Assembly: GCF_001997385.1 (NCBI RefSeq)
Contig: NZ_CP019633.1
Coordinates: forward strand, 2,550,001 to 2,582,000
DNA length: 32,000 nucleotides
DNA from: Sedimentisphaera cyanobacteriorum
GTDB taxonomy: Bacteria > Planctomycetota > Phycisphaerae > Sedimentisphaerales > Sedimentisphaeraceae
Direction: 5' to 3'
The notes beneath the pieces were generated by a model, which was not told the origin of the DNA, searched no databases, and saw nothing but the letters and a program-made list of their open reading frames with translations. Positions 5,545 through 26,494 of this stretch are shown here, piece by piece. Position numbers and translations under genes: made by a program. How positions within the stretch are numbered: position 1 is the first letter of the stretch; each line of letters begins with the position of its first letter.

Positions 5545-6741
5545 ATGTACTTGAAGAAGCACAAGCGAAAGAAGAATGGTAAGATCAATTCCTATTACAG
5601 CATAGCGGAGAAGCGTAAGGTTTCTCGCGGGCGTTATGTTGAGAAGATGGTGCTGTATCTTGGTGAAATCTCTGATTCTCAGAAGAAGTCTTGGCAGAGA
5701 TCCATTGAGATAATCAACGAGGACAACAAGCCTGTCCGCAAGTCATTATTCGCTTTTGATCAGGACAATCACACACATCACGACATAGATACGATTCCGG
5801 TAAAGCTCTCAAAGATGAAGCTTAACAACCCCAGAACATTCGGGGACTGCTGGCTCGGCTGCGAGATATGGGATATGCTGGGATTAGACACCTTCTGGTC
5901 GGAGAGGATAGACACTGCCAAATCGCCGGTTGACTATTCCAAAGTTGTAAAATTGCTGACAGTAAACCGTCTTATCAAGCCCGGAGCGGAGTTTTATGTC
6001 CACCGGCACTGGTTCACTCAGACCGCAATGGATGTATTGCTGGGCTGTGAATTTGATGTTGCCGAAAAAAACCGGCTTTACCGTTGTCTGGACAGGATAT
6101 TGCCGTATAAAGAAGAGCTTTGTTCTTATTTGAAAGACACATGGCAGATGATGTTCAATCTGGAATATGACATTCTGCTTTACGATATAACCAGTACTTA
6201 TTTTGAGGGATTATGCAAAAGCAATCCCAAGGCAAAATTCGGCCACAGCAAAGACCGCAGAGGCGATTGCAGGCAGATTCTTATCGCTTTGGTAGTTACC
6301 CCTGAGGGATTTCCGATCAATTATGAGATACTCGCCGGCAACACCTCAGAGAGAACAACGCTTAAACCCTTGTTAAACAAGATAGAGTCGAAATACGGCA
6401 AGGCAGGCAGGTTATGGCTGATGGACAGAGGTATTCCAACAGAAGCTGTGCTGGAGTATATGCGTGATAACGGGATTGATTATCTTGTCGGAACGCCCCG
6501 TAAGCTGCTGGATGAATTCCAAGAAGAGCTTTCTGTGAAAAGCTGGTTTGATGTAAATGGAATCGTTCGCATAAAGCATATAGCCAAAGATGACGAATGC
6601 TATATTCTTGCTCGAAGCAAAGAGAGAATGGCTAAAGAACGGGCTATGCGTAAAAGAAAGCTCCGTAATTACTTAGAAGGACTGGAGAAGTTAAAGAAAT
6701 GCCGCAGCCGAGATGTTTTTATGCAAAGGCTCGGCAAACTC
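5545..6741 (+). pseudogene. IS1634-family transposase gene (outer element), N-terminal 399 codons, interrupted by insertion of another IS
   Basis: The N-terminus MYLKKHKRKKNGKINSYYSIAEKRKVSRGRYVEKMVLYLGEI and the DDE-region motifs LLYDITSTYFEG and LWLMDRGI are IS1634-like. The ORF runs into the inverted repeat of the inserted IS at 6741 and stops at 6759. Confidence 0.85.
5941..6741 (+). repeat. 801-bp direct repeat, copy 1 (left flank of inner IS)
   Basis: I compared it line by line with 8615-9415 and found no mismatch. Confidence 0.95.
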
Positions 6742-18073: not shown

Positions 18074-19273
18074 CTAATCAAGTCCCTCTATGTTTTCAGT
18101 GCCGAGGGGCTGATATTTCGCCCTGTATTCTTTTGGGGTGAGGCCTGTGTAATCTTTGAAATACTTTGAAATATGGTTCGAATCCGGGAAGTTGAGCCTG
18201 TATGCGATATCGGTAACCGGCAGGGTAGTTTCCAGAAGCAGTGAGGAAATCGCCTTCACTCTCGCCCTTTTTATGCATTTGTGTACAGACTTTCCCAGCG
18301 AGTTCATAAATTTTCTATGCAGATACTGCCTTGAACAGCAGGAAAAATCGCAAACCTCCTGCACCAGAATGGAGCGGTCTGAATTGAGCCTTATAAATCT
18401 AAGCGCAGCTGCCACTTCCCTGTCTTCCACTGCCACAAAATCCGAAGACTGTCGAATTATCACTTCTCTCGGTTTTACTCGAATCAACTTGGGCGGAATA
18501 TTTTTGGTTTCCGTGATCTTATCTATCAGCTCAGCGGCTTCATAGCCAGCGCTGTCGGTATCAAGGTCTATGCTTGAAAGCGTAGGCGAAGTGAAATCGC
18601 AGATGAGGTCGTCATTGTCCACTGCTACTGCAGATATGTCGTCCGGTACATTCAAGTTGGCTTTTTTGCATGCATTTATTAAATCTGCACCGCAGTTATC
18701 GTTGCAGGCCATTATGCCTGTAGGTATTGGCAGAGTTTTAAGCCAAGCGGCAATTTCTTCCAGTCCTTCGGAGGTGATGCCGGTGCTTTTGGGCATATTA
18801 TAAGAGAAGAATTTCAAAGGCAGCTTATCAGCAGGCAGATTTTTCTCGAAGCAATCTCGCCTTTCATCAGCCCAAACAACATCTTTGTAGCCGATATACG
18901 CAAAGTTTATATTGCCCATTGTGCGAAGGTGTTCGTAAGCGGCTTTGCTAACCGTAACAGGGTCTGTGGTAATTGTGTATTTATCTTCGATCTGTGAATT
19001 GTAAACATACGAATGAACTATGGGTTTATTCAGCCCTTTCACCTTATCCAAACACGTAAGCTCTACCATGATGATGCCTTGTGCCTCGTTTGCGGCCTCT
19101 ATAACACATTCTTCAAACTGTCGGGTATTCAGGTAGAGCGAGTTTTCAGAGTCGATTGTTGTAAACTCCAGATAATCCTTCGTTTTCCCATACTGTATAA
19201 TACCCCTCAAGAGCTCTCGTCCGTTGCTCTTTGTTCTGTTGATAACTAAGAGTATTTTCTTTTTCTTACGCAT
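18074..19273 (-). CDS. XylR-like transcriptional regulator (sugar-binding PBP/LacI-like domain fused to AraC-type HTH)
   Basis: 399 aa. The C-terminus carries an AraC signature, LPVTDIAYRLNFPDSNHISKYFKDYTGLTPKEYR. The N-terminal 270 aa or so resemble a periplasmic-binding-protein fold (GIMACNDNCGADLINACK). Confidence 0.8.
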   Translation of the reverse strand: MRKKKKILLVINRTKSNGRELLRGIIQYGKTKDYLEFTTIDSENSLYLNTRQFEECVIEAANEAQGIIMVELTCLDKVKGLNKPIVHSYVYNSQIEDKYTITTDPVTVSKAAYEHLRTMGNINFAYIGYKDVVWADERRDCFEKNLPADKLPLKFFSYNMPKSTGITSEGLEEIAAWLKTLPIPTGIMACNDNCGADLINACKKANLNVPDDISAVAVDNDDLICDFTSPTLSSIDLDTDSAGYEAAELIDKITETKNIPPKLIRVKPREVIIRQSSDFVAVEDREVAAALRFIRLNSDRSILVQEVCDFSCCSRQYLHRKFMNSLGKSVHKCIKRARVKAISSLLLETTLPVTDIAYRLNFPDSNHISKYFKDYTGLTPKEYRAKYQPLGTENIEGLD

Positions 19274-19469
19274 AAAGCATCCTGCCGGCTGAAAAATTAC
19301 AAATAAATCCCTTAATTCTAAACGAATTATAACCTTTCGTCCGCTGTTTACAAACTTCAGAGTCAGCGATGGGAGGCAAGTTTCGGGGATATTGCGTAAA
19401 GAGCTGTTTAGCGGCCATCATGGAGGGGATTCGAATTTTCTTGTTTTTTTATTCTTAGATGAAAATTAT

Positions 19470-19497
19470 TTGAAAATAGATGCTTGCTTGTTACAAT
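19470..19497 (+). promoter_or_regulatory. sigma-70-type promoter of the abiE cassette, overlapped by TGAAAAT direct repeats
   Basis: TTGAAA (19470-19475), a 16-bp spacer and TACAAT (19492-19497). TGAAAAT occurs at 19460-19466 and 19471-19477, 11 bp apart. Confidence 0.55.
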
Positions 19498-19544
19498 ATG
19501 ATGACAGATATTTATAAGTGTCACTGAATTGTAGTGCTGCGAAA

Positions 19545-20147
19545 ATGAACGACAAAGAAAAAATACTGAAATATGCTGCTAAAAAAGGGGCAATCAGTCC
19601 CAGAGAAATCGAGAGTGTGGGTATTTCACGGCAAAAGCTCTATAGACTTTATCGTGAAGGCAAACTGGTTCGAGTAGACCGTGGTACATATTCTATTCGG
19701 AATGTTGAGCCGACCGAATGGCATACTTACGTTACTGTAGCAGTGGCTTTCCCTAAATCTGTAATATGTCTGCTTTCCGCACTTCAATTTCATAACCTTA
19801 CAACACAGAATCCCCATAACGTTTGGATTGCTCTTGACCGAGAAGCGGACAGAAGGAATCCGAAACGCAGTCGCCAGCCGGTTTCGATTGTTCGATTTTC
19901 AGGAGATTCTTTTTCACAGGGTATTGAAACTCACAGTATCGAAGGGGTTCACGTTCAAATATACAGTGCAGCGAAAACCGTGGCAGACTGCTTTAAGTAT
20001 CGCAACAAGATAGGGCTGGAAATAGCAATAGAAGCAATGACTGATTGTATTCGTAAGAAAAAAGCTACGCGAGATCGAATCTGGCAGTTCGCCAAAATAT
20101 GCAGAGTATCAAAAGTCATCAGACCTTACATGGAGGCAATAACGTGA
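19545..20147 (+). CDS. abiEi: type IV toxin-antitoxin/abortive-infection antitoxin, AbiEi family
   Basis: I chose ATG 19545. The N-terminal wHTH, KGAISPREIESVGISRQKLYRLYREGKLVRVDRGTYS, is characteristic of AbiEi. The stop overlaps the next gene's GTG (GTGA). Confidence 0.75.
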   Translation: MNDKEKILKYAAKKGAISPREIESVGISRQKLYRLYREGKLVRVDRGTYSIRNVEPTEWHTYVTVAVAFPKSVICLLSALQFHNLTTQNPHNVWIALDREADRRNPKRSRQPVSIVRFSGDSFSQGIETHSIEGVHVQIYSAAKTVADCFKYRNKIGLEIAIEAMTDCIRKKKATRDRIWQFAKICRVSKVIRPYMEAIT

Positions 20148-21049
20148 CATCCAGAAAAGCTCAGTCCATTCGACAACAACTTCTTAATATCACCAATGAA
20201 AGATCTGTCGATTATAACCTCACTCTAATCTGGTATGCCCTGGAACGGCTGCTCTATAGACTTAGCAGGTCTAAGTATTCAAGTCGTTTCATTCTTAAGG
20301 GTGCTATGCTTTTTACTGTTTGGTCAGGGAGATCATTCAGACCAACAAAAGATATTGATTTTTTAGGTTTTGGCAAATCTTCAGCGCAAGATCTCAAGAA
20401 TCTATTTACTGAGATTATTCAAATAAATGACGACTTGAATGACGGCCTTGTGTTTTTAAGTGAAAGCCTTAGTGTACAGCCTATTCGTGAAGAGCAGGAA
20501 TACGGAGGACAGCGAATTACCCTGAATGCCTTGCTTGGAAATGCCCGTATTCGTTTGCAAATTGATATTGGCTTCGGAGATGCCATAACGCCTGTACCGG
20601 AAAAGATTCAGTTTCCCACTCTGTTAGAGATGCCTGCACCAGAAATTCTAATTTATAATAGAGAGACGGTAATTGCAGAAAAATTTCATGCCATAAATGT
20701 ACTGGGGCTTGCAAGTAGCAGAATGAAAGACTACTACGATCTGTGGATACTATCGAAGCAATATGAGTTCGACGGAAATCTTCTGGCAAAAGCTATCCAG
20801 ACAACTTTTGAGAGGCGAAAGACATCGTTGCCAGAAAAAATGCCGCTTGGGCTAACAGATGAATTTTACAAGGATGAAATTATTCTTACACGATGGAATG
20901 CTTTTGTTAGAAAAACAGAATTGGGCATAGTCGAGAAAAGATTGGAAGCAGTCGTTGAAAGATTACAGCTATTTTTCGATGATGTAATCAGGGCGTTAGC
21001 GACAAGCGAAAATTTTGACAAAAAATGGGACAAAAATCAATGGAAATAA
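20144..21049 (+). CDS. abiEii: nucleotidyltransferase toxin, AbiEii/AbiGii family
   Basis: GTG 20144 overlaps the abiEi stop by 4 nt. Motifs FILKGAMLF and PTKDIDFLG (the NTase G[GS]...DxD region) are present, and the size of about 300 aa fits the family. Confidence 0.8.
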   Translation: MTSRKAQSIRQQLLNITNERSVDYNLTLIWYALERLLYRLSRSKYSSRFILKGAMLFTVWSGRSFRPTKDIDFLGFGKSSAQDLKNLFTEIIQINDDLNDGLVFLSESLSVQPIREEQEYGGQRITLNALLGNARIRLQIDIGFGDAITPVPEKIQFPTLLEMPAPEILIYNRETVIAEKFHAINVLGLASSRMKDYYDLWILSKQYEFDGNLLAKAIQTTFERRKTSLPEKMPLGLTDEFYKDEIILTRWNAFVRKTELGIVEKRLEAVVERLQLFFDDVIRALATSENFDKKWDKNQWK

Positions 21050-21627
21050 AGAATCCCTATCCTAAAGAAGTTTCATACTATCTCGATAAATGGGACACCC
21101 TTGAAAACTACGTGTTACAGGAAAGCAGCCTTAGAAAGTTATTCACACAAACATATCCACTGAACATTGAAATGGATGATGTTTTGATAAAAGTCTGCTC
21201 ATTAAATGATTTTTACAGCACTAACATTTTTTCCCCTTTCAACGTAGCGAAACATATTGTTGGATTACAAATAGATCAGCGGCTTGCTGATAGAGACTTC
21301 AACCTTGTAAATGATATTGCTACTGTAAAAGTAAATGACCATAAAACCATCAATTTCTACTCCTTCGCTACCAAATATTGCAGCCATCACTTGCCTGAAG
21401 ATTACCCCATATATGACAGCTTTGTGGAAAAAATGCTCATGTATTTCAAAGGAAAGGACAAGTTTTTCAGGTTCAAGGCAAATGACCTCAAGCACTATCC
21501 AACTTATCGAAAAGTTTTAATGCAATTTAGAAAATTTTATGAACTTGGAGATTTTACACTAAAACAAATTGATAAGTATCTGTGGCAAGCAGGGAAGGCC
21601 TATTTCCCCAAAAAATACGGGGCCTGA
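21040..21627 (+). CDS. uncharacterised protein (about 195 aa) translationally coupled to abiEii; possible OGG-fold/HhH-like motif
   Basis: ATG 21040 lies 10 nt inside the end of abiEii; the alternative ATG 21025 gives a 25-nt overlap. There is no TM segment or signal peptide. The motifs YSFATKYCSHHLPEDYPIYDSFV and IDKYLWQAGK resemble what I recall for proteins annotated as 8-oxoguanine DNA glycosylase OGG-fold. This is unverified. Confidence 0.6.
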   Translation: MEIKNPYPKEVSYYLDKWDTLENYVLQESSLRKLFTQTYPLNIEMDDVLIKVCSLNDFYSTNIFSPFNVAKHIVGLQIDQRLADRDFNLVNDIATVKVNDHKTINFYSFATKYCSHHLPEDYPIYDSFVEKMLMYFKGKDKFFRFKANDLKHYPTYRKVLMQFRKFYELGDFTLKQIDKYLWQAGKAYFPKKYGA

Positions 21628-21644
21628 TTTTGAAAGGTAAATTC

Positions 21645-22142
21645 ATGTTCGCATTACACTGCACAAAAAAGGCACAGGATCGCCTGAAGGTTAAACCGGT
21701 TAGTGCCTTGCCCGAGCCAACCACCCGATTGGGGAATTGGTATTGTAATGAATTTACCACATCCAGGCGAAAATACCTGATCTTCGTCAATGTACGCACA
21801 TTGCTGCCAATTGTGGTTTCAGTTAAAGGATTGAAAACAAGCAGGGATATTCTTGAACTTTTCAAGCAACGGTTGTTCAAAGCATTTCTTCTTCTACAAT
21901 TGCCGGAAGAAAAATTTATGCCAGAGCTTGTGGAGATGGATGAAGCGGTCTTCGCAAAAACGTCTAACCGAAGCATTGTTGGTTCAATGAACGATATTAT
22001 AGCACAGGCCAAATTCTCATCTGATTACCATGAAATTGATGTGGATAGTCCGGCGATGTTTGAGAGCCTTTCGCAAATACCGTTAAAAGCCAATGGCTAC
22101 AAGCGTTCAACCGAGTTGGTGGCTGAATTGCTACGACCTTAA
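21645..22142 (+). CDS. uncharacterised protein (165 aa), resembles a widespread family of about 160 aa (possibly Pfam DUF6933, unverified)
   Basis: ATG 21645 has AAAGG 6 nt upstream and lies 17 nt after the previous stop. The N-terminal pattern is MFALHCTKKAQDRLKVKP...LGNWYCNEFTTSRRKYLIFVNVRTLLPIVV. Confidence 0.6.
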   Translation: MFALHCTKKAQDRLKVKPVSALPEPTTRLGNWYCNEFTTSRRKYLIFVNVRTLLPIVVSVKGLKTSRDILELFKQRLFKAFLLLQLPEEKFMPELVEMDEAVFAKTSNRSIVGSMNDIIAQAKFSSDYHEIDVDSPAMFESLSQIPLKANGYKRSTELVAELLRP

Positions 22143-22148
22143 AGAGCT

Positions 22149-22339
22149 TCACCGGCATGACTCTTTTCCTGCCTGATAGGCTTTTTCGAGGGCTTCTTTG
22201 ATGCTCCAGACGGCGTGTTCATGGAAATCGTGGGTATCCCAGTTGCGGGTTTCAAGCGTTTCAAGGAAAAGCACTTCCTTGGCTATTTGCAGTAAGGTCT
22301 CGTCGCGTTTTTTATCAGCTTTTGCATTTGCTTTTTCAT
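22149..22339 (-). pseudogene. small (about 63-codon) gene, apparently frameshifted at an A6 run
   Basis: ATG 22339-22337 has GAAAGG upstream and opens MKKQMQKLIK, then hits a stop. The -1 frame is open from 22340 to the TGA at 22151-22149. It encodes ...KRDETLLQIAKEVLFLETLETRNWDTHDFHEHAVWSIKEALEKAYQAGKESCR. One extra A in the run at 22308-22313 would fuse the two frames. Confidence 0.5.
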
Positions 22340-22376
22340 CTTAAAACCTTTCTATTCAATGGTTTACGTTTACTTT

Positions 22377-23910
22377 AGTCGCCCCTGAAAAAGTTTAAAA
22401 TTTTCCTTAAATTCTTTCCTGATAATGGTTTATATGATTGAAAAGCTTTCGAGATATGGTATAATATTGCAAGTGTTTATCTTACATCTATCAAAACATT
22501 GCAATATTGGGACAAAATAATGAAGGCAAAAAACAATAAAGCAGGCTTACTCTTTCAGCAGCCATTAAAACCTCTTGTAAATCCTGATCACTCTTTAGTC
22601 CAACTCTCAGAGGTTGTCAACTGGTCTCGCTTTGAAGAAAAGTTTGGCAGTTTATACAGTCCTGATTCAGGCAGGCCGGCCAAGCCGATTCGCCTGATGG
22701 TCGGCCTTCAGTATCTCAAGTACACTTTCAATCTCAGCGATGAAGCAATCGTTGCCGGCTGGGTTGAGAATCCTTACTGGCAGTATTTCTGCGGCGAAAG
22801 ATACTTCCAGCACGAGCCTCCTATTGATCCAACCAGTATGACTAAGTGGCGTAATAAGGTAAAATCTGATGGTCTTGAAGAGCTGCTCGAAGAAACTATC
22901 AAAGCCGGCTTGAAGCTTAAGGTTATCAAAAAGAACGATTTCAACAAGCTCGTTGCAGATACAACCGTTCAGCAGAAGAACATCACTTATCCGACCGACG
23001 CAAAACTCTGCCACAAACTGCGCATTAAGCTTGTAGATCTTGCAAAAGCATCAAAACTCCAACTTCGCCAAAGCTACGAAAGGGTTGGGAAAAGGGCGTA
23101 TGTAATGCAGGGCAGGTATCGACGTGCAAGACAGTTCAAAAGAGCTAAAAAAGAAGTGAAGAAATTAAGGAACTACCTGCGGCGAATTACGAAAGAGGTC
23201 GAGCGGAATATAGCAGGCAATGAGCAGTTAAGAATAATTTTTGATACATTGCTTCAAGCCGCTAAGAAGCTTTTAGCCCAGACAAAGAAAAGCAAAAATA
23301 AACTCTACAGTATTCACGAACCTCACGTCTGCTGCATTGGGAAAGGCAAAAGCCACAAGAAATATGAGTTTGGAAATAAGGTTGGAATTGTAACTACTGC
23401 CAAGAATAATTTTATCGTAGGAGCGTTGGGCTTTGAAGGAAACCCTTATGATGGCCATACTCTTCGGGCTAATCTGAAGCAGACAATGAATTTAATCGGG
23501 AGAGAAAAGCTTGGAGATGTTTATGTTGATGGAGGATACAAGAAACACGGCTGCGAGGATATTGGAAATGTTGAAATTGTAGAAAAGGGCTGGCGAAAAA
23601 AGAAACGAAGTATCAAGAGGTGGATTAAGAGAAGATCGAGCATAGAACCAACGATAGGCCACCTCAAAGAAGACAACAGGTTGGGAAGAAACTTCTTGAA
23701 AGGTGTAGAAGGGGACAAAATGAACGCCCTCGGCAGCGCTTTTGGGTACAATATGCGTAAACTTCTAAAGAAGTTTACTTTTGCCTATATTTTTATGCTT
23801 AAAATTATTGAATTTTACAGAAATTTGGCAATGAAAAGCAAATTAAAGACTCGATTAGCCTGATATATTTTTTTAGTTTCCCCAAAATCATTGATTTTTC
23901 AGGAACGACT
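22377..23910 (+). mobile_element. intact IS5-family insertion sequence (1534 bp) with a 5-bp target-site duplication
   Basis: The terminal inverted repeats are AGTCGCCCCTGAAAAA (22377-) and the reverse complement AGTCGTTCCTGAAAAA (-23910), matching at 14 of 16 positions. ACTTT occurs at 22372-22376 and again at 23911-23915. Confidence 0.85.
22520..23863 (+). CDS. IS5-family DDE transposase
   Basis: The N-terminal block is GRPAKPIRLMVGLQYLKYTFNLSDEAIVAGWVENPYWQYFCG. DDE-region motifs are LVADTTVQQKNITYPTD, VYVDGGY and IEPTIGHLKEDNRLGRNFLKG. I preferred ATG 22520 over the TTG at 22499. Confidence 0.9.
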   Translation: MKAKNNKAGLLFQQPLKPLVNPDHSLVQLSEVVNWSRFEEKFGSLYSPDSGRPAKPIRLMVGLQYLKYTFNLSDEAIVAGWVENPYWQYFCGERYFQHEPPIDPTSMTKWRNKVKSDGLEELLEETIKAGLKLKVIKKNDFNKLVADTTVQQKNITYPTDAKLCHKLRIKLVDLAKASKLQLRQSYERVGKRAYVMQGRYRRARQFKRAKKEVKKLRNYLRRITKEVERNIAGNEQLRIIFDTLLQAAKKLLAQTKKSKNKLYSIHEPHVCCIGKGKSHKKYEFGNKVGIVTTAKNNFIVGALGFEGNPYDGHTLRANLKQTMNLIGREKLGDVYVDGGYKKHGCEDIGNVEIVEKGWRKKKRSIKRWIKRRSSIEPTIGHLKEDNRLGRNFLKGVEGDKMNALGSAFGYNMRKLLKKFTFAYIFMLKIIEFYRNLAMKSKLKTRLA

Positions 23911-24226
23911 ACTTTATAACCCCATTAAGCCATTGATTCGGGCAGTCATCAAGTCAATTAAGCTGTTTAATTGCAATAACTTAGCTTATTTTATGGATTG
24001 CCTGCTGGTTTGGTGGCGAATCTGGCGTTATCAGTGACCACGGGCAGTAAACCTCGGATACCGGGCCGATCTCGCTACCATCGGGACGAATGGCGGCGCC
24101 GGCGGCGGACAGGCGGATTTTAGCGCTGCTCGGTTTGAATATAAGCCTTGTTCTGTAAATAATCTTTGGGTGCTGTGAGTTTTAGTTCAGGCGAGGGGTT
24201 TAGGATAATAGAAAGGAGCGTTTTGA

Positions 24227-26494
24227 TTACTCAAGCCAGCTTTCTGCAAGCTCAATCAAATCATCCGTGTTTACAAATCCGTCGCGGCTAAAGTCAGCAT
24301 AGCTGCATCCCTGTTTATTCGGGCAGTCTTCAGCGAGCCACCAATACGCTATATGCGAAAAGTTTAGATATGAGTTATCAGGCGAAATCTCTGCTTTTCC
24401 GTTTGAGTACAGCATAGAGCTGTCCCACGAAAGCCCCTCCGGGAGAACGGGCATAATCTCTAAGTAGAATTCACTGCTGAGATGGTTTACCCCTTCCATC
24501 AGCTCATAAGAAGCGTTTGGCTCAAGGCTTAGGCTTTCGTGGGGGTTGAAATACAATCTGCCGGTAATAAAAGTTTGGCTGGTCTGCGTGAAGCTGAGCT
24601 TGGCTGAGCCGTCTAATTCTAAAGTTCCGCTGCTCATTTTGAAGGTATCTTCGATATAAACCGTGCCTTCTCCTTTTACAGCGAGCTTTTTATAGTTTAG
24701 ATCTACCTCGCCGGTAAGGTGCAGTTCAGCTCCGTTTTCAACAATAATATCAATATGATTGTTCAGCCACACAGGCACTGCTATCTCGTGGCTGCCTCTT
24801 CGCACTTCAATCACGCTTTGATAAGTATCTGATTCAAATGTGATGCTGCCCGGGCCCTGCAGAGTGTAGCCGGAGTCATTATTGAATCGGATAGACTTGA
24901 TCGCGTAGTCTTTATTCAAGCTCACAGAGGCAGGCGATCCGGCTGCGCTTCCAAAATTCGCTGTTTCGCTGTTATTCTCAGGTCTTCCCCAGTAGTACCA
25001 GTTGGTAAGGTCTTCCCAGTTTCCCGAGCCGCTTTTTGTCCAAGCCTTTTCTCCCTCAGCGGGCTGGGAGATATCCAGCTGCCCGCTCTGAAAAGCTGCC
25101 GGCGAGCTTGCCGGGGAATCAATATAATTGCCCAGCGCATCAAAACGCAGTATTTTCCCGTTCTGCTGGCGGATATATACATCACCATTGTCGTCCTGAG
25201 CTAATGCTTCAGGGTTATTAAGCGGCTGTCCTTCGAAAGTGCTGCCCAGCGTAAAACTTCCGAGAGGTGCATCCTGATGCTGCGTTTTTTCGAATCTGAG
25301 AACATCTCCATTTGCTGAATCAATAACGAGGAAATGCTCAGGCGAGGCTTGCCTGAAATTTTCGATTTTGTGGAAAGTCATCAGGTTACTGTCGTGGCCG
25401 CGGGGCGGTTTTTCATCGCCCCCGCCTACGTCAAAAGCGGTGCGTGAGGCTATAACCATATCATCTCCGTCGAAGTCAAAATTGAAATACTGAAAACCCT
25501 CGCCGAAAGAGCCGTTATCGAGGTTTTCGGTGAAAATGAAAATCTTCTGCAGCTCCCAATTGATCAAGTCTTCCGAGCTGAGCAGTCCTCCCGCAGTGCG
25601 AACAAGCTCAGGCGGAGTGCCTTCTCCCTTGTGAACGTCTAATACAGGATTGCTAAGCACATAAAACTTGCCGGAAACAGGGTCGTATGAAGCTCCGAAC
25701 TTTTTCTCGCCTCCGGGCAGATGCGGGAAGGCATCTTCAGCGGATGCATTGAATTTTACCTTAGAAGGGGATTTTGCTTTTATACGAGCTGTATGAGGAA
25801 GTCCGCGGATTTTGGGCAGAATATAAACCCCGGTTTGAGCCGATGCCACGGCCTGACCTTCAGTCCAGCCTCCGTCCCATTCGTCTCCCAGCGGATGCCC
25901 GTTTGGGGATGCCCAGTTGGTCATTGTCCAAGAGCTTGCTTTGAGCAAATCTGCGCCGGTTGGAGCAGAAATAAGACGTCTTGTCGCTCCTGACCAAATT
26001 CGCCCGTTAAAAACCAGGGGATTATTCGGTGAGCCTATGCCTTGATTGCCGAGAAGGCCTGTCTGCGAATTATCTGCATTTGTCCAAGTATTGCCGTTGT
26101 CTGTAGATTTGCGTATTACATTCTGTCCGCCGTCGGAGTTGTAGGAACCGAGCAGGTATAAATCACCATTATGAACGAAAAGACTGGCTCTGAGAATGCC
26201 GTTAAGGGTGGCTGAATGAGTCCAGCTTGCACCTTTGTCTGAAGAACGAAACACTGAGGTTTTGCCGGAATTATCGGCATCAGAGCCCCCTCCAAATCTT
26301 GCATGAGAGGTGATATAATCCCCGTTCGGGAGCACTGTTATACAGGGGTCTGAAATATAAACCGGATTTATTGGTACTCCAAAAAAGCGTGAAGGCGATT
26401 CGATGTAGTTGATAACACTGCCAGGGACTGAGCTGAAATCTGCTTTAACAAAACAGAATACGCTTAAAAATAACACAAAACCAAACTTTTTCAT
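24227..26494 (-). CDS. secreted BNR/Asp-box (sialidase-superfamily-like) protein with autotransporter-type beta-strand repeat region and dockerin-like C-terminal tail
   Basis: The protein has a signal peptide (MKKFGFVLFLSVFCFVKA) and Asp-boxes SSDKGASWT and STDNGNTWT. A central segment, WTKSGSGNWEDLTNWYY...ANFG...IKSIRFNN..GYTLQG, resembles PATR-type repeats. The C-terminus is DFSRDGFVNTDDLIELAESWLE. Confidence 0.7.
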   Translation of the reverse strand: MKKFGFVLFLSVFCFVKADFSSVPGSVINYIESPSRFFGVPINPVYISDPCITVLPNGDYITSHARFGGGSDADNSGKTSVFRSSDKGASWTHSATLNGILRASLFVHNGDLYLLGSYNSDGGQNVIRKSTDNGNTWTNADNSQTGLLGNQGIGSPNNPLVFNGRIWSGATRRLISAPTGADLLKASSWTMTNWASPNGHPLGDEWDGGWTEGQAVASAQTGVYILPKIRGLPHTARIKAKSPSKVKFNASAEDAFPHLPGGEKKFGASYDPVSGKFYVLSNPVLDVHKGEGTPPELVRTAGGLLSSEDLINWELQKIFIFTENLDNGSFGEGFQYFNFDFDGDDMVIASRTAFDVGGGDEKPPRGHDSNLMTFHKIENFRQASPEHFLVIDSANGDVLRFEKTQHQDAPLGSFTLGSTFEGQPLNNPEALAQDDNGDVYIRQQNGKILRFDALGNYIDSPASSPAAFQSGQLDISQPAEGEKAWTKSGSGNWEDLTNWYYWGRPENNSETANFGSAAGSPASVSLNKDYAIKSIRFNNDSGYTLQGPGSITFESDTYQSVIEVRRGSHEIAVPVWLNNHIDIIVENGAELHLTGEVDLNYKKLAVKGEGTVYIEDTFKMSSGTLELDGSAKLSFTQTSQTFITGRLYFNPHESLSLEPNASYELMEGVNHLSSEFYLEIMPVLPEGLSWDSSMLYSNGKAEISPDNSYLNFSHIAYWWLAEDCPNKQGCSYADFSRDGFVNTDDLIELAESWLE

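Follow-up and report, generated by a model that had tools for sequence, protein, structure and literature searches.

Probable mosaic make-up of an AbiE operon in Sedimentisphaera cyanobacteriorum and a recurrent association of AbiEii with DUF6933

Does the AbiE toxin–antitoxin pair of Sedimentisphaera cyanobacteriorum L21-SP3 form a larger defence system with the two genes that follow it? The pair lies in a 32,000-nucleotide (nt) stretch of contig NZ_CP019633.1 (positions 2,550,001–2,582,000; hereafter the window, in which all positions are counted), and abiEi and abiEii are followed on the same strand by two open reading frames (ORFs), ORF3 and ORF4. An initial annotation, made from the sequence alone, had read the four genes either as an extended AbiE variant or as AbiE followed by a second two-gene system that uses its promoter. 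Our comparison with loci from other genomes (labelled with L-numbers, such as L001, L063 and L231) favours a mosaic operon composed of AbiE, an inserted ORF3 and a DUF6933/DUF6900 block, in which the DUF6933 gene, ORF4, is linked to AbiE. We assign this reading as a whole a probability of about 65%.

The first two genes are a canonical AbiE pair, a type IV toxin–antitoxin and abortive-infection module, as had been proposed. AbiEi matches Pfam AbiEi_4 (PF13338; 6e-10, residues 6–50) and the PADLOC AbiEi model PDLC02265 (5e-80, covering residues 2–200 of 200), and AbiEii matches PF08843 (6e-48; 164 bits against a cut-off of 22.5) and the PADLOC AbiEii model (4e-103). The nucleotidyltransferase motifs I–IV of AbiEii were defined by Dy et al. 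2014 (PMC3985639), with motifs I–II reading hG[G/S]x15DhD, a lysine in motif III and an aspartate in motif IV. Residues G53, D70-x-D72, K180, R193, D196 and D199 are conserved in our alignment (A7), where motifs I–II of the window protein read K-G53-A-x15-D70-I-D72 with alanine at the second position of motif I throughout the subfamily; the catalytic motifs are intact. AbiEii is identical (100%) to L21SP3_02055, whose publicly annotated length of 247 amino acids (aa) places the start about 54 codons too far downstream when compared with the 301–306 aa of its homologues.

ORF4 belongs to DUF6933. It matches PF22016 at 3e-36 (124.9 bits against a cut-off of 27) over residues 4–157 and profile positions 2–156 of 157, as well as the PADLOC PDC-S63 models PDLC05054 (1.4e-12, nearly full length) and PDLC05056 (1.8e-5), for which there is no curated cut-off. 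The exact 165-aa product is not among the database matches, and the gene may be unannotated or annotated with another start. Close relatives of ORF4 (64–92% identity) were found in nine distinguishable genomic contexts, the window included, and in eight of these an AbiEi-like gene and AbiEii lie directly upstream of the DUF6933 gene, with ORF3 interposed in the window. These eight contexts are the window itself, L081/L164/L165, L166/L167, L170, L082, L083/L234/L235, L168/L169 and L171/L172, and in them the AbiEii stop is separated from the DUF6933 ATG by 9–17 nt. The exception, L161–L163, carries the closest ORF4 homologue (92%) behind a gene for an AAA_14-DUF4143 ATPase, the stop of which overlaps the DUF6933 start.

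The AbiE pairs that accompany DUF6933 fall into three subfamilies, namely type A (window), type B (46–48% identical to A) and type C (25–27% identical to A and B). The DUF6933 protein of the type C locus L083 is 80–82% identical to those of the window (A) and L164 (B) and only 65% identical to that of L168 (C), and the gene trees of AbiE and DUF6933 are incongruent. As the DUF6933 identities do not track the AbiE types, the partners have recombined repeatedly while their adjacency was kept. The position of AbiEii upstream in eight of nine contexts, the involvement of three AbiE subfamilies and the incongruent trees together identify AbiEi-AbiEii-DUF6933 as a recurrent three-gene architecture, and the best-supported interpretation is that this architecture is selected and evolutionarily maintained. 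The four-gene form in the window is a lineage-specific elaboration. The proposal of an extended AbiE variant thus survives for ORF4, whose homologues co-occur with AbiEii in other genomes, but not for ORF3, which stands beside AbiE in one of 108 loci (L063) and is no part of a conserved four-gene cassette.

DNA homology of the ORF4 block begins exactly at the ATG at 21645 and runs 84–229 nt beyond the stop into the convergent DUF6900 gene; the conserved block (21645–22371) is 94% identical to L161–L163 at the DNA level. L161–L163 and L164/L081 have a common backbone of DUF2924 and a large serine recombinase and differ in what precedes DUF6933, AAA_14-DUF4143 versus AbiEi/AbiEii, which is a clear cargo swap with breakpoints at gene boundaries. 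Between L165 and L164, an indel of DUF6900 is located exactly after the DUF6933 stop. In L166/L167, a second, truncated AbiEii (5780–6499), which shares 72% protein and 76% DNA identity with the type A gene of the window, lies downstream of the AbiEi-AbiEii-DUF6933-DUF6900 genes of that locus and suggests tandem or successive cassette insertions.

ORF3 has a different distribution. PF27257 is the precomputed annotation on the ORF3-identical protein (L21SP3_02056, 100% identity) and on all 120 homologues listed, while ORF3 gave no match in the local Pfam set (which does not include the PF27257 model), PADLOC, NCBIfam or PHROGs. The family is very large (more than 4000 matches at 90% clustering; 2602 clusters at 50% identity, E < 1e-3), and its members are 57–84% identical across Patescibacteria, Bacillota, Bacteroidota, Planctomycetota, Spirochaetota and Proteobacteria. 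We surveyed the neighbourhoods of 108 ORF3 loci (80 from genomes and 28 from viral contigs, together 1.0 Mb with L063 counted). AbiEii of any of the three subfamilies, AbiEi or DUF6933 adjoins the ORF3 homologue in 1 of the 80 genome loci and in none of the 28 viral loci, and ORF3 is absent from all AbiE-DUF6933 loci and other DUF6933 loci examined. The single case, L063 (1617–2473), comes from a Pirellulales metagenome-assembled genome and consists of a 63-aa AbiEii tail, a deletion-truncated ORF3 and a 54-aa ORF4 fragment, with DNA 96% identical to the window over 20858–21404 and 90% over 21598–21805. It is a decayed, internally deleted copy of the same cassette and not an independent occurrence, and its presence in Pirellulales indicates that the cassette has moved between Planctomycetota and can be lost.

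The nearest neighbours of the ORF3 homologues (n = 134) are spread over 113 Pfam families with no constant neighbour, and the families seen more than once include the defence-type ResIII, Fic, GIY-YIG, GmrSD, type I restriction–modification subunits and HerA. When the window is compared with about 85 other ORF3 loci, the DNA similarity does not extend beyond the coding region (21043–21620). Since ORF3 lacks a constant neighbour and adjoins AbiE and DUF6933 only in the decayed copy, it is best regarded as an insertion. The joint with abiEii points the same way: the window abiEii ends 1–4 codons earlier than its relatives and the ORF3 ATG sits in its last codons, CAA TGG AAA TAA, which has the look of a secondary joint in which the ORF3 start appears to derive from the final abiEii codons. 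Close ORF3 relatives were not found in the plasmid collection. In nine loci (L001, L003–L005, L007, L008, L010, L012 and L052), a larger gene ends 5–8 nt before the ORF3 homologue and encodes a PF27257-like paralogue without a Pfam match, usually of 371–378 aa (partial in three loci). Many other PF27257 members are 290–340 aa long with N-terminal extensions, and the only domain fusions seen are to DUF7662 and DUF7669, both of unknown function.

The modelled structure of ORF3 is all-helical, with a predicted local distance difference test (pLDDT) score of 91. Its Foldseek matches in the PDB are non-significant, the best being 3knt (MjOgg; E = 0.21, template modelling (TM) score 0.35), followed by DUF2419 and AlkA; a weak match to aGPT-Pplase was obtained in BFVD, and a profile search of the PDB returned no match. 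The conserved ORF3 stretch SFATKYCSHH-x-P-x3-P-I-Y-D may resemble the Lys...Asp region of Ogg2-type enzymes. With neither a significant fold match nor a Pfam, NCBIfam or PDB sequence match, membership of the HhH-GPD DNA glycosylases is not established, and the weak but consistent trend among the top matches gives slight hints that the modelled fold may be a DNA-glycosylase-like helical domain.

The four co-oriented genes form one tight cluster and probably a single, co-transcribed operon. All junctions are as first described (Table 1): abiEi and abiEii overlap by 4 nt (GTGA), ORF3 begins 10 nt inside abiEii, with a second possible ATG at 21025 (25 nt inside), and ORF4 follows after a 17-nt gap with AAAGG located 7 nt before its ATG. 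The ORF3 start at 21040 is preferred because the homologues and the 195-aa NCBI protein agree with it. The low G+C content reported for all four genes was also found, at 0.38–0.41 against 0.45–0.52 in the flanks. There are no plus-strand terminator-like sites in 19000–22600 and no Rfam families in 18500–24500. No direct or inverted repeats bounding the low-G+C island were found in the flanks, and the window holds an insertion sequence (IS) but no recombinase.

Table 1 Coordinates of the features at the AbiE locus of the window.
Feature	Position	Strand	Description
TGAAAAT direct repeats	19460–19477	+	Two copies, 11 nt apart; sole such pair in the window
Sigma-70-like promoter	19470–19497	+	TTGAAA-N16-(TG)TACAAT; scan score 10/12, TG-extended
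Imperfect palindrome	19492–19533	.	42 bp (arms of 18 nt around a 6-nt spacer); left end at the -10 box; likely AbiEi operator
abiEi	19545–20147	+	200 aa; ATG 19545, stop 20145–20147; antitoxin and transcriptional regulator
abiEii	20144–21049	+	301 aa; GTG 20144, stop 21047–21049; DUF1814 nucleotidyltransferase toxin
ORF3	21040–21627	+	195 aa; ATG 21040, stop 21625–21627; PF27257 member, inserted stand-alone gene
ORF4	21645–22142	+	165 aa; ATG 21645; DUF6933/PDC-S63-like
DUF6900 homologue	22149–22339	-	Convergent on ORF4, 6 nt between stops; frameshifted near its start
IS element	22438–23863		454-aa transposase (DUF772 + DDE_Tnp_1); directly downstream of the cassette

The promoter proposed upstream of abiEi was recovered by our scan as the only good plus-strand match ahead of the cassette, and one plus-strand match scoring 9/12 lies inside it (20955–20983). 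The region contains 11 promoter-like matches compared with 8.6 ± 3.1 in shuffled sequences and is not enriched, so the call rests on position and conservation and not on number: the -35 and -10 hexamers are positionally conserved in the promoter regions of the four AbiE pairs most closely related to that of the window. The TGAAAAT repeats, which had been suggested as the AbiEi operator, exist and are unusual (none in 100 shuffles), but they are not conserved in the related promoters of L231–L233, and the second copy is the -35 box itself; we rejected them as the operator. The palindrome that begins at the -10 box is the better candidate because AbiEi proteins autoregulate via inverted repeats (PMC3985639, PMC7319586). 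It occurs at the same position in the related loci, with matching arms at 12/18 positions in the window, 17/18 in L231, 16/18 in L233 and 14/18 in L232, and is likely to be the AbiEi operator. Its right arm spans the GTG at 19518, which favours the downstream ATG as the abiEi start.

The four AbiE pairs closest to that of the window (71–75% identity in AbiEii) have neither DUF6933 nor ORF3. Two are plain two-gene operons and two are followed at 20–32 nt by the gene of an AEP-TOTE protein (PF22548; L231 2592–3449 and L232 4941–7373), one of which is fused to a DEAD/ResIII helicase. AEP-TOTE represents another apparently undescribed gene joined to the 3′ end of an AbiE operon.

Beyond the ORF4 clade, DUF6933 has other partners. 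We tallied the upstream gene in 121 DUF6933 loci from metagenomes, viral contigs and plasmids. A ParB_N protein with an N6/N4 DNA methylase precedes DUF6933 in 28 loci (mostly phage contigs, gaps of 77–150 nt), a DUF4172-Fic protein in 23 (gaps of 9–13 nt), AbiEii in 12, AAA_14-DUF4143 in 3 and a pRiA4b ORF-3 family protein in 1; 48 loci have another or no recognisable gene there, and in 6 the contig is too short to judge. On the IMG/VR contigs L205–L229, DUF6933 is nearly always located behind a ParB_N and DNA methyltransferase, or a Fic, gene, and its occurrence on viral contigs indicates that the family is also carried by phages or prophages. The plasmid collection holds only distant relatives in varied contexts, where the gene neighbours a type ISP restriction–modification enzyme or DUF262/DUF3696 genes, or follows the gene of a SEC-C protein. 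DUF6933 is a small mobile-element module that usually forms the final cistron after the gene of an enzyme that modifies nucleotides or DNA, and its link with AbiE characterises the ORF4 clade.

The AlphaFold model of ORF4 has a pLDDT of 94. Although a sequence search of the PDB gave no match, the best Foldseek matches are the catalytic cores of retroviral integrases (probability 0.97–1.0, E = 1.6e-3 to 1e-2, TM 0.37–0.49). Residues K9, W32, V48, N49, T52, R109, G113, M115 and D134 are invariant in the DUF6933 alignment, and when mapped on the secondary structure they leave both the first hairpin strand and the segment after strand 4 without an invariant acidic residue. The model thus supports, at moderate strength, an RNase H-like fold without an obvious DDE triad. 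As no acids stand at the positions expected for DDE enzymes, a binding or non-canonical role of DUF6933 is favoured.

Several observations weigh against the mosaic, AbiE-linked reading. The closest homologue of ORF4 trails an ATPase gene and not AbiE, and some AbiE-DUF6933 loci may share ancestry, so that eight of nine overstates their independence, although at least three joins to different AbiE types are independent. Family-wide, AbiEii accounts for a minority of the upstream genes (12 of 121, against 28 for ParB-methylase, 23 for Fic and 48 with another or no gene), and the link may therefore be clade-specific or merely positional. In PADLOC, PDC-S63 figures as a candidate system of one gene. 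Support for the assigned folds is moderate for ORF4 (E ~2e-3, TM 0.45–0.49) and weak for ORF3 (E 0.2, TM 0.35). A rival explanation sees in ORF4 a PDC-S63-like defence or accessory gene that works alone, lacks a promoter of its own and lodges at the 3′ end of any operon at hand; its adjacency to AbiE would then reflect defence-island packing and shared mobility and not cooperation with the toxin. The diverse genes found upstream (Fic, ParB-methylase, AAA_14-DUF4143, pRiA4b ORF-3, SEC-C or none), the single-gene listing in PADLOC, the closest homologue behind an ATPase and homology blocks that begin exactly at the ATG, as they would for a portable gene, all fit this explanation. Random lodging, however, should yield many more partner types than the ORF4 clade displays: AbiEii is directly upstream in eight of its nine contexts, three AbiE subfamilies have been swapped with adjacency and the 9–17-nt spacing retained, and none of the 107 comparable ORF3 loci has an AbiEii of these types. 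We regard an autonomous ORF4 as a credible but less likely account.

The serine-recombinase backbone common to L161 and L164, with DUF6933 retained and the cargo differing, raises the further possibility that integrative mobile elements contain DUF6933, together with DUF6900, as part of their backbone or as their terminal gene and that the site upstream of it is a hotspot exchanging AbiE, the ATPase and ORF3 as cargo. The DUF6900 indel right after the DUF6933 stop between L165 and L164 and the second, truncated AbiEii downstream of DUF6933-DUF6900 in L166 would fit as well. Such a hotspot is improbable, since AbiE-DUF6933 also occurs without the recombinase backbone in unrelated surroundings (L166, L168 with a tyrosine integrase, L170 and L171), the window has only an IS and no recombinase, and the supposed cargo hardly varies, being almost always AbiE. 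Least credible, and in our judgement very unlikely, are the readings of the four genes as one four-component system or of ORF3 and ORF4 as a second pair. The tight junctions, the single promoter-like site and the lack of an internal terminator speak for them, and the order AbiEii-ORF3-ORF4 is repeated in L063 with 90–96% DNA identity; yet L063 preserves only a truncated and internally deleted piece of this cassette, neither AbiEii nor DUF6933 is present in the remaining 107 ORF3 loci, ORF3 is found in no AbiE-DUF6933 or other DUF6933 locus, and the three parts of the operon have separate homology blocks. Co-occurrence leads us to reject the four-gene system, and the suggested pair fails because ORF3 and ORF4 are never together elsewhere and DNA homology breaks at the ORF4 start codon.

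Under the mosaic reading, transcription would begin at the promoter upstream of abiEi and one AbiEi-controlled transcript would carry all four genes, with AbiEi repressing by binding the palindrome that overlaps the -10 box and AbiEii acting as the nucleotidyltransferase toxin of the module. In the ORF4 clade the DUF6933/DUF6900 block nearly always stands 9–17 nt behind AbiEii, irrespective of the AbiE subfamily, and ORF3 would have entered secondarily between abiEii and DUF6933 in the lineage of the window and would act independently. DUF6933 is most likely an accessory nucleic-acid-binding component, a sensor or modulator or a second effector, that uses the expression signals of the upstream gene, and its basic and polar conserved residues would fit a nucleic-acid-binding role. 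In other mobile elements the module is found behind the genes of Fic AMPylases, ParB-methylases or AAA_14-DUF4143 ATPases. Within the mosaic account, true functional cooperation between DUF6933 and AbiEii is conceivable, but we give it somewhat less than even odds. In a bolder version, DUF6933 would be a portable third component that turns two-gene AbiE modules into tripartite systems and likewise extends the single-gene Fic, ParB-methylase and AAA_14-DUF4143 enzymes, for example as a nucleic-acid-binding trigger or modulator linking phage sensing to the activation of a nucleotide-transferring toxin; AbiEi-AbiEii-DUF6933 would in that case be a subtype of AbiE defence not recognised before. 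This version is speculative and, on present evidence, rather unlikely.

The gene convergent on ORF4 is 91% identical to a 63-aa gene of L163 that matches PF21841 (DUF6900) at 3e-23, and it also matches the C-terminus of phrog_2555 (1.8e-20). Its ATG (22337–22339) is one base out of frame at an A5 run where the intact copies lead one to expect A6, which points to a pseudogene or to a sequencing error in the homopolymer. Conservation of the ORF4/DUF6900 block stops at about 22371, just ahead of the IS, and it is the IS that carries the highest-scoring promoter match in the region (TTGAAA-16-TATAAT, 11/12, 22438–22465).

The retention of DUF6933 behind AbiEii through repeated swaps of the AbiE subfamily makes it a testable candidate for a missing sensor, modulator or co-effector of AbiE/MenT-type toxins, and the locus provides a first functional context for the uncharacterised DUF6933/PDC-S63 family and for PF27257, which is likewise uncharacterised and very large. 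The locus also illustrates that genes in a defence island can become tightly packed through secondary insertion and that such packing is no proof of a multi-gene system, which bears on how automated tools define system boundaries.

Among known systems, the window is closest to the AbiE modules of Streptococcus agalactiae and Lactococcus lactis (PMC3985639), with which it has in common the AbiEi_4 winged-helix antitoxin, the DUF1814 nucleotidyltransferase with motifs I–IV, the 4-nt start/stop overlap described for S. agalactiae and an inverted repeat at the promoter. Whereas AbiE is described as bicistronic (PMC3985639), the window has two extra cistrons without room for a promoter, DUF6933 is a regular third gene in related loci, and the subfamily of the window has G-A instead of G-[G/S] in motif I. 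The MenAT systems of Mycobacterium tuberculosis contain DUF1814 toxins (MenT) of the same superfamily, which transfer nucleotides to tRNA acceptor stems and are regulated by antitoxin-induced auto-phosphorylation (PMC7450476, PMC11375011); by analogy, a MenT-like nucleotide transfer is the likely activity of AbiEii. MenAT differs in that some MenA antitoxins are of another type, and the papers that could be searched contain no DUF6933-like third gene. ORF4 matches both the PF22016 and PDC-S63 models, the latter as a distant member of the PADLOC models, but PDC-S63 is listed as a solitary candidate whereas ORF4, like its relatives in other contexts, is the last cistron of an AbiE operon. Its model resembles the retroviral/DDE integrase core in the RNase H-like fold, its best structural match, and differs from it in having no sequence similarity, no obvious D-D-E triad and no other domains in its 165 aa. 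For ORF3, the top structural matches are the HhH-GPD glycosylases MjOgg and AlkA and the DUF2419 queuine salvage enzyme, all non-significant (E at least 0.2, TM ~0.35). The literature searched makes no mention of DUF6933, PDC-S63 or PF27257 and holds nothing relevant on a three-gene AbiEii system, and the AbiE-DUF6933 three-gene arrangement seems to be a variant of the known AbiE system that has not been described before.

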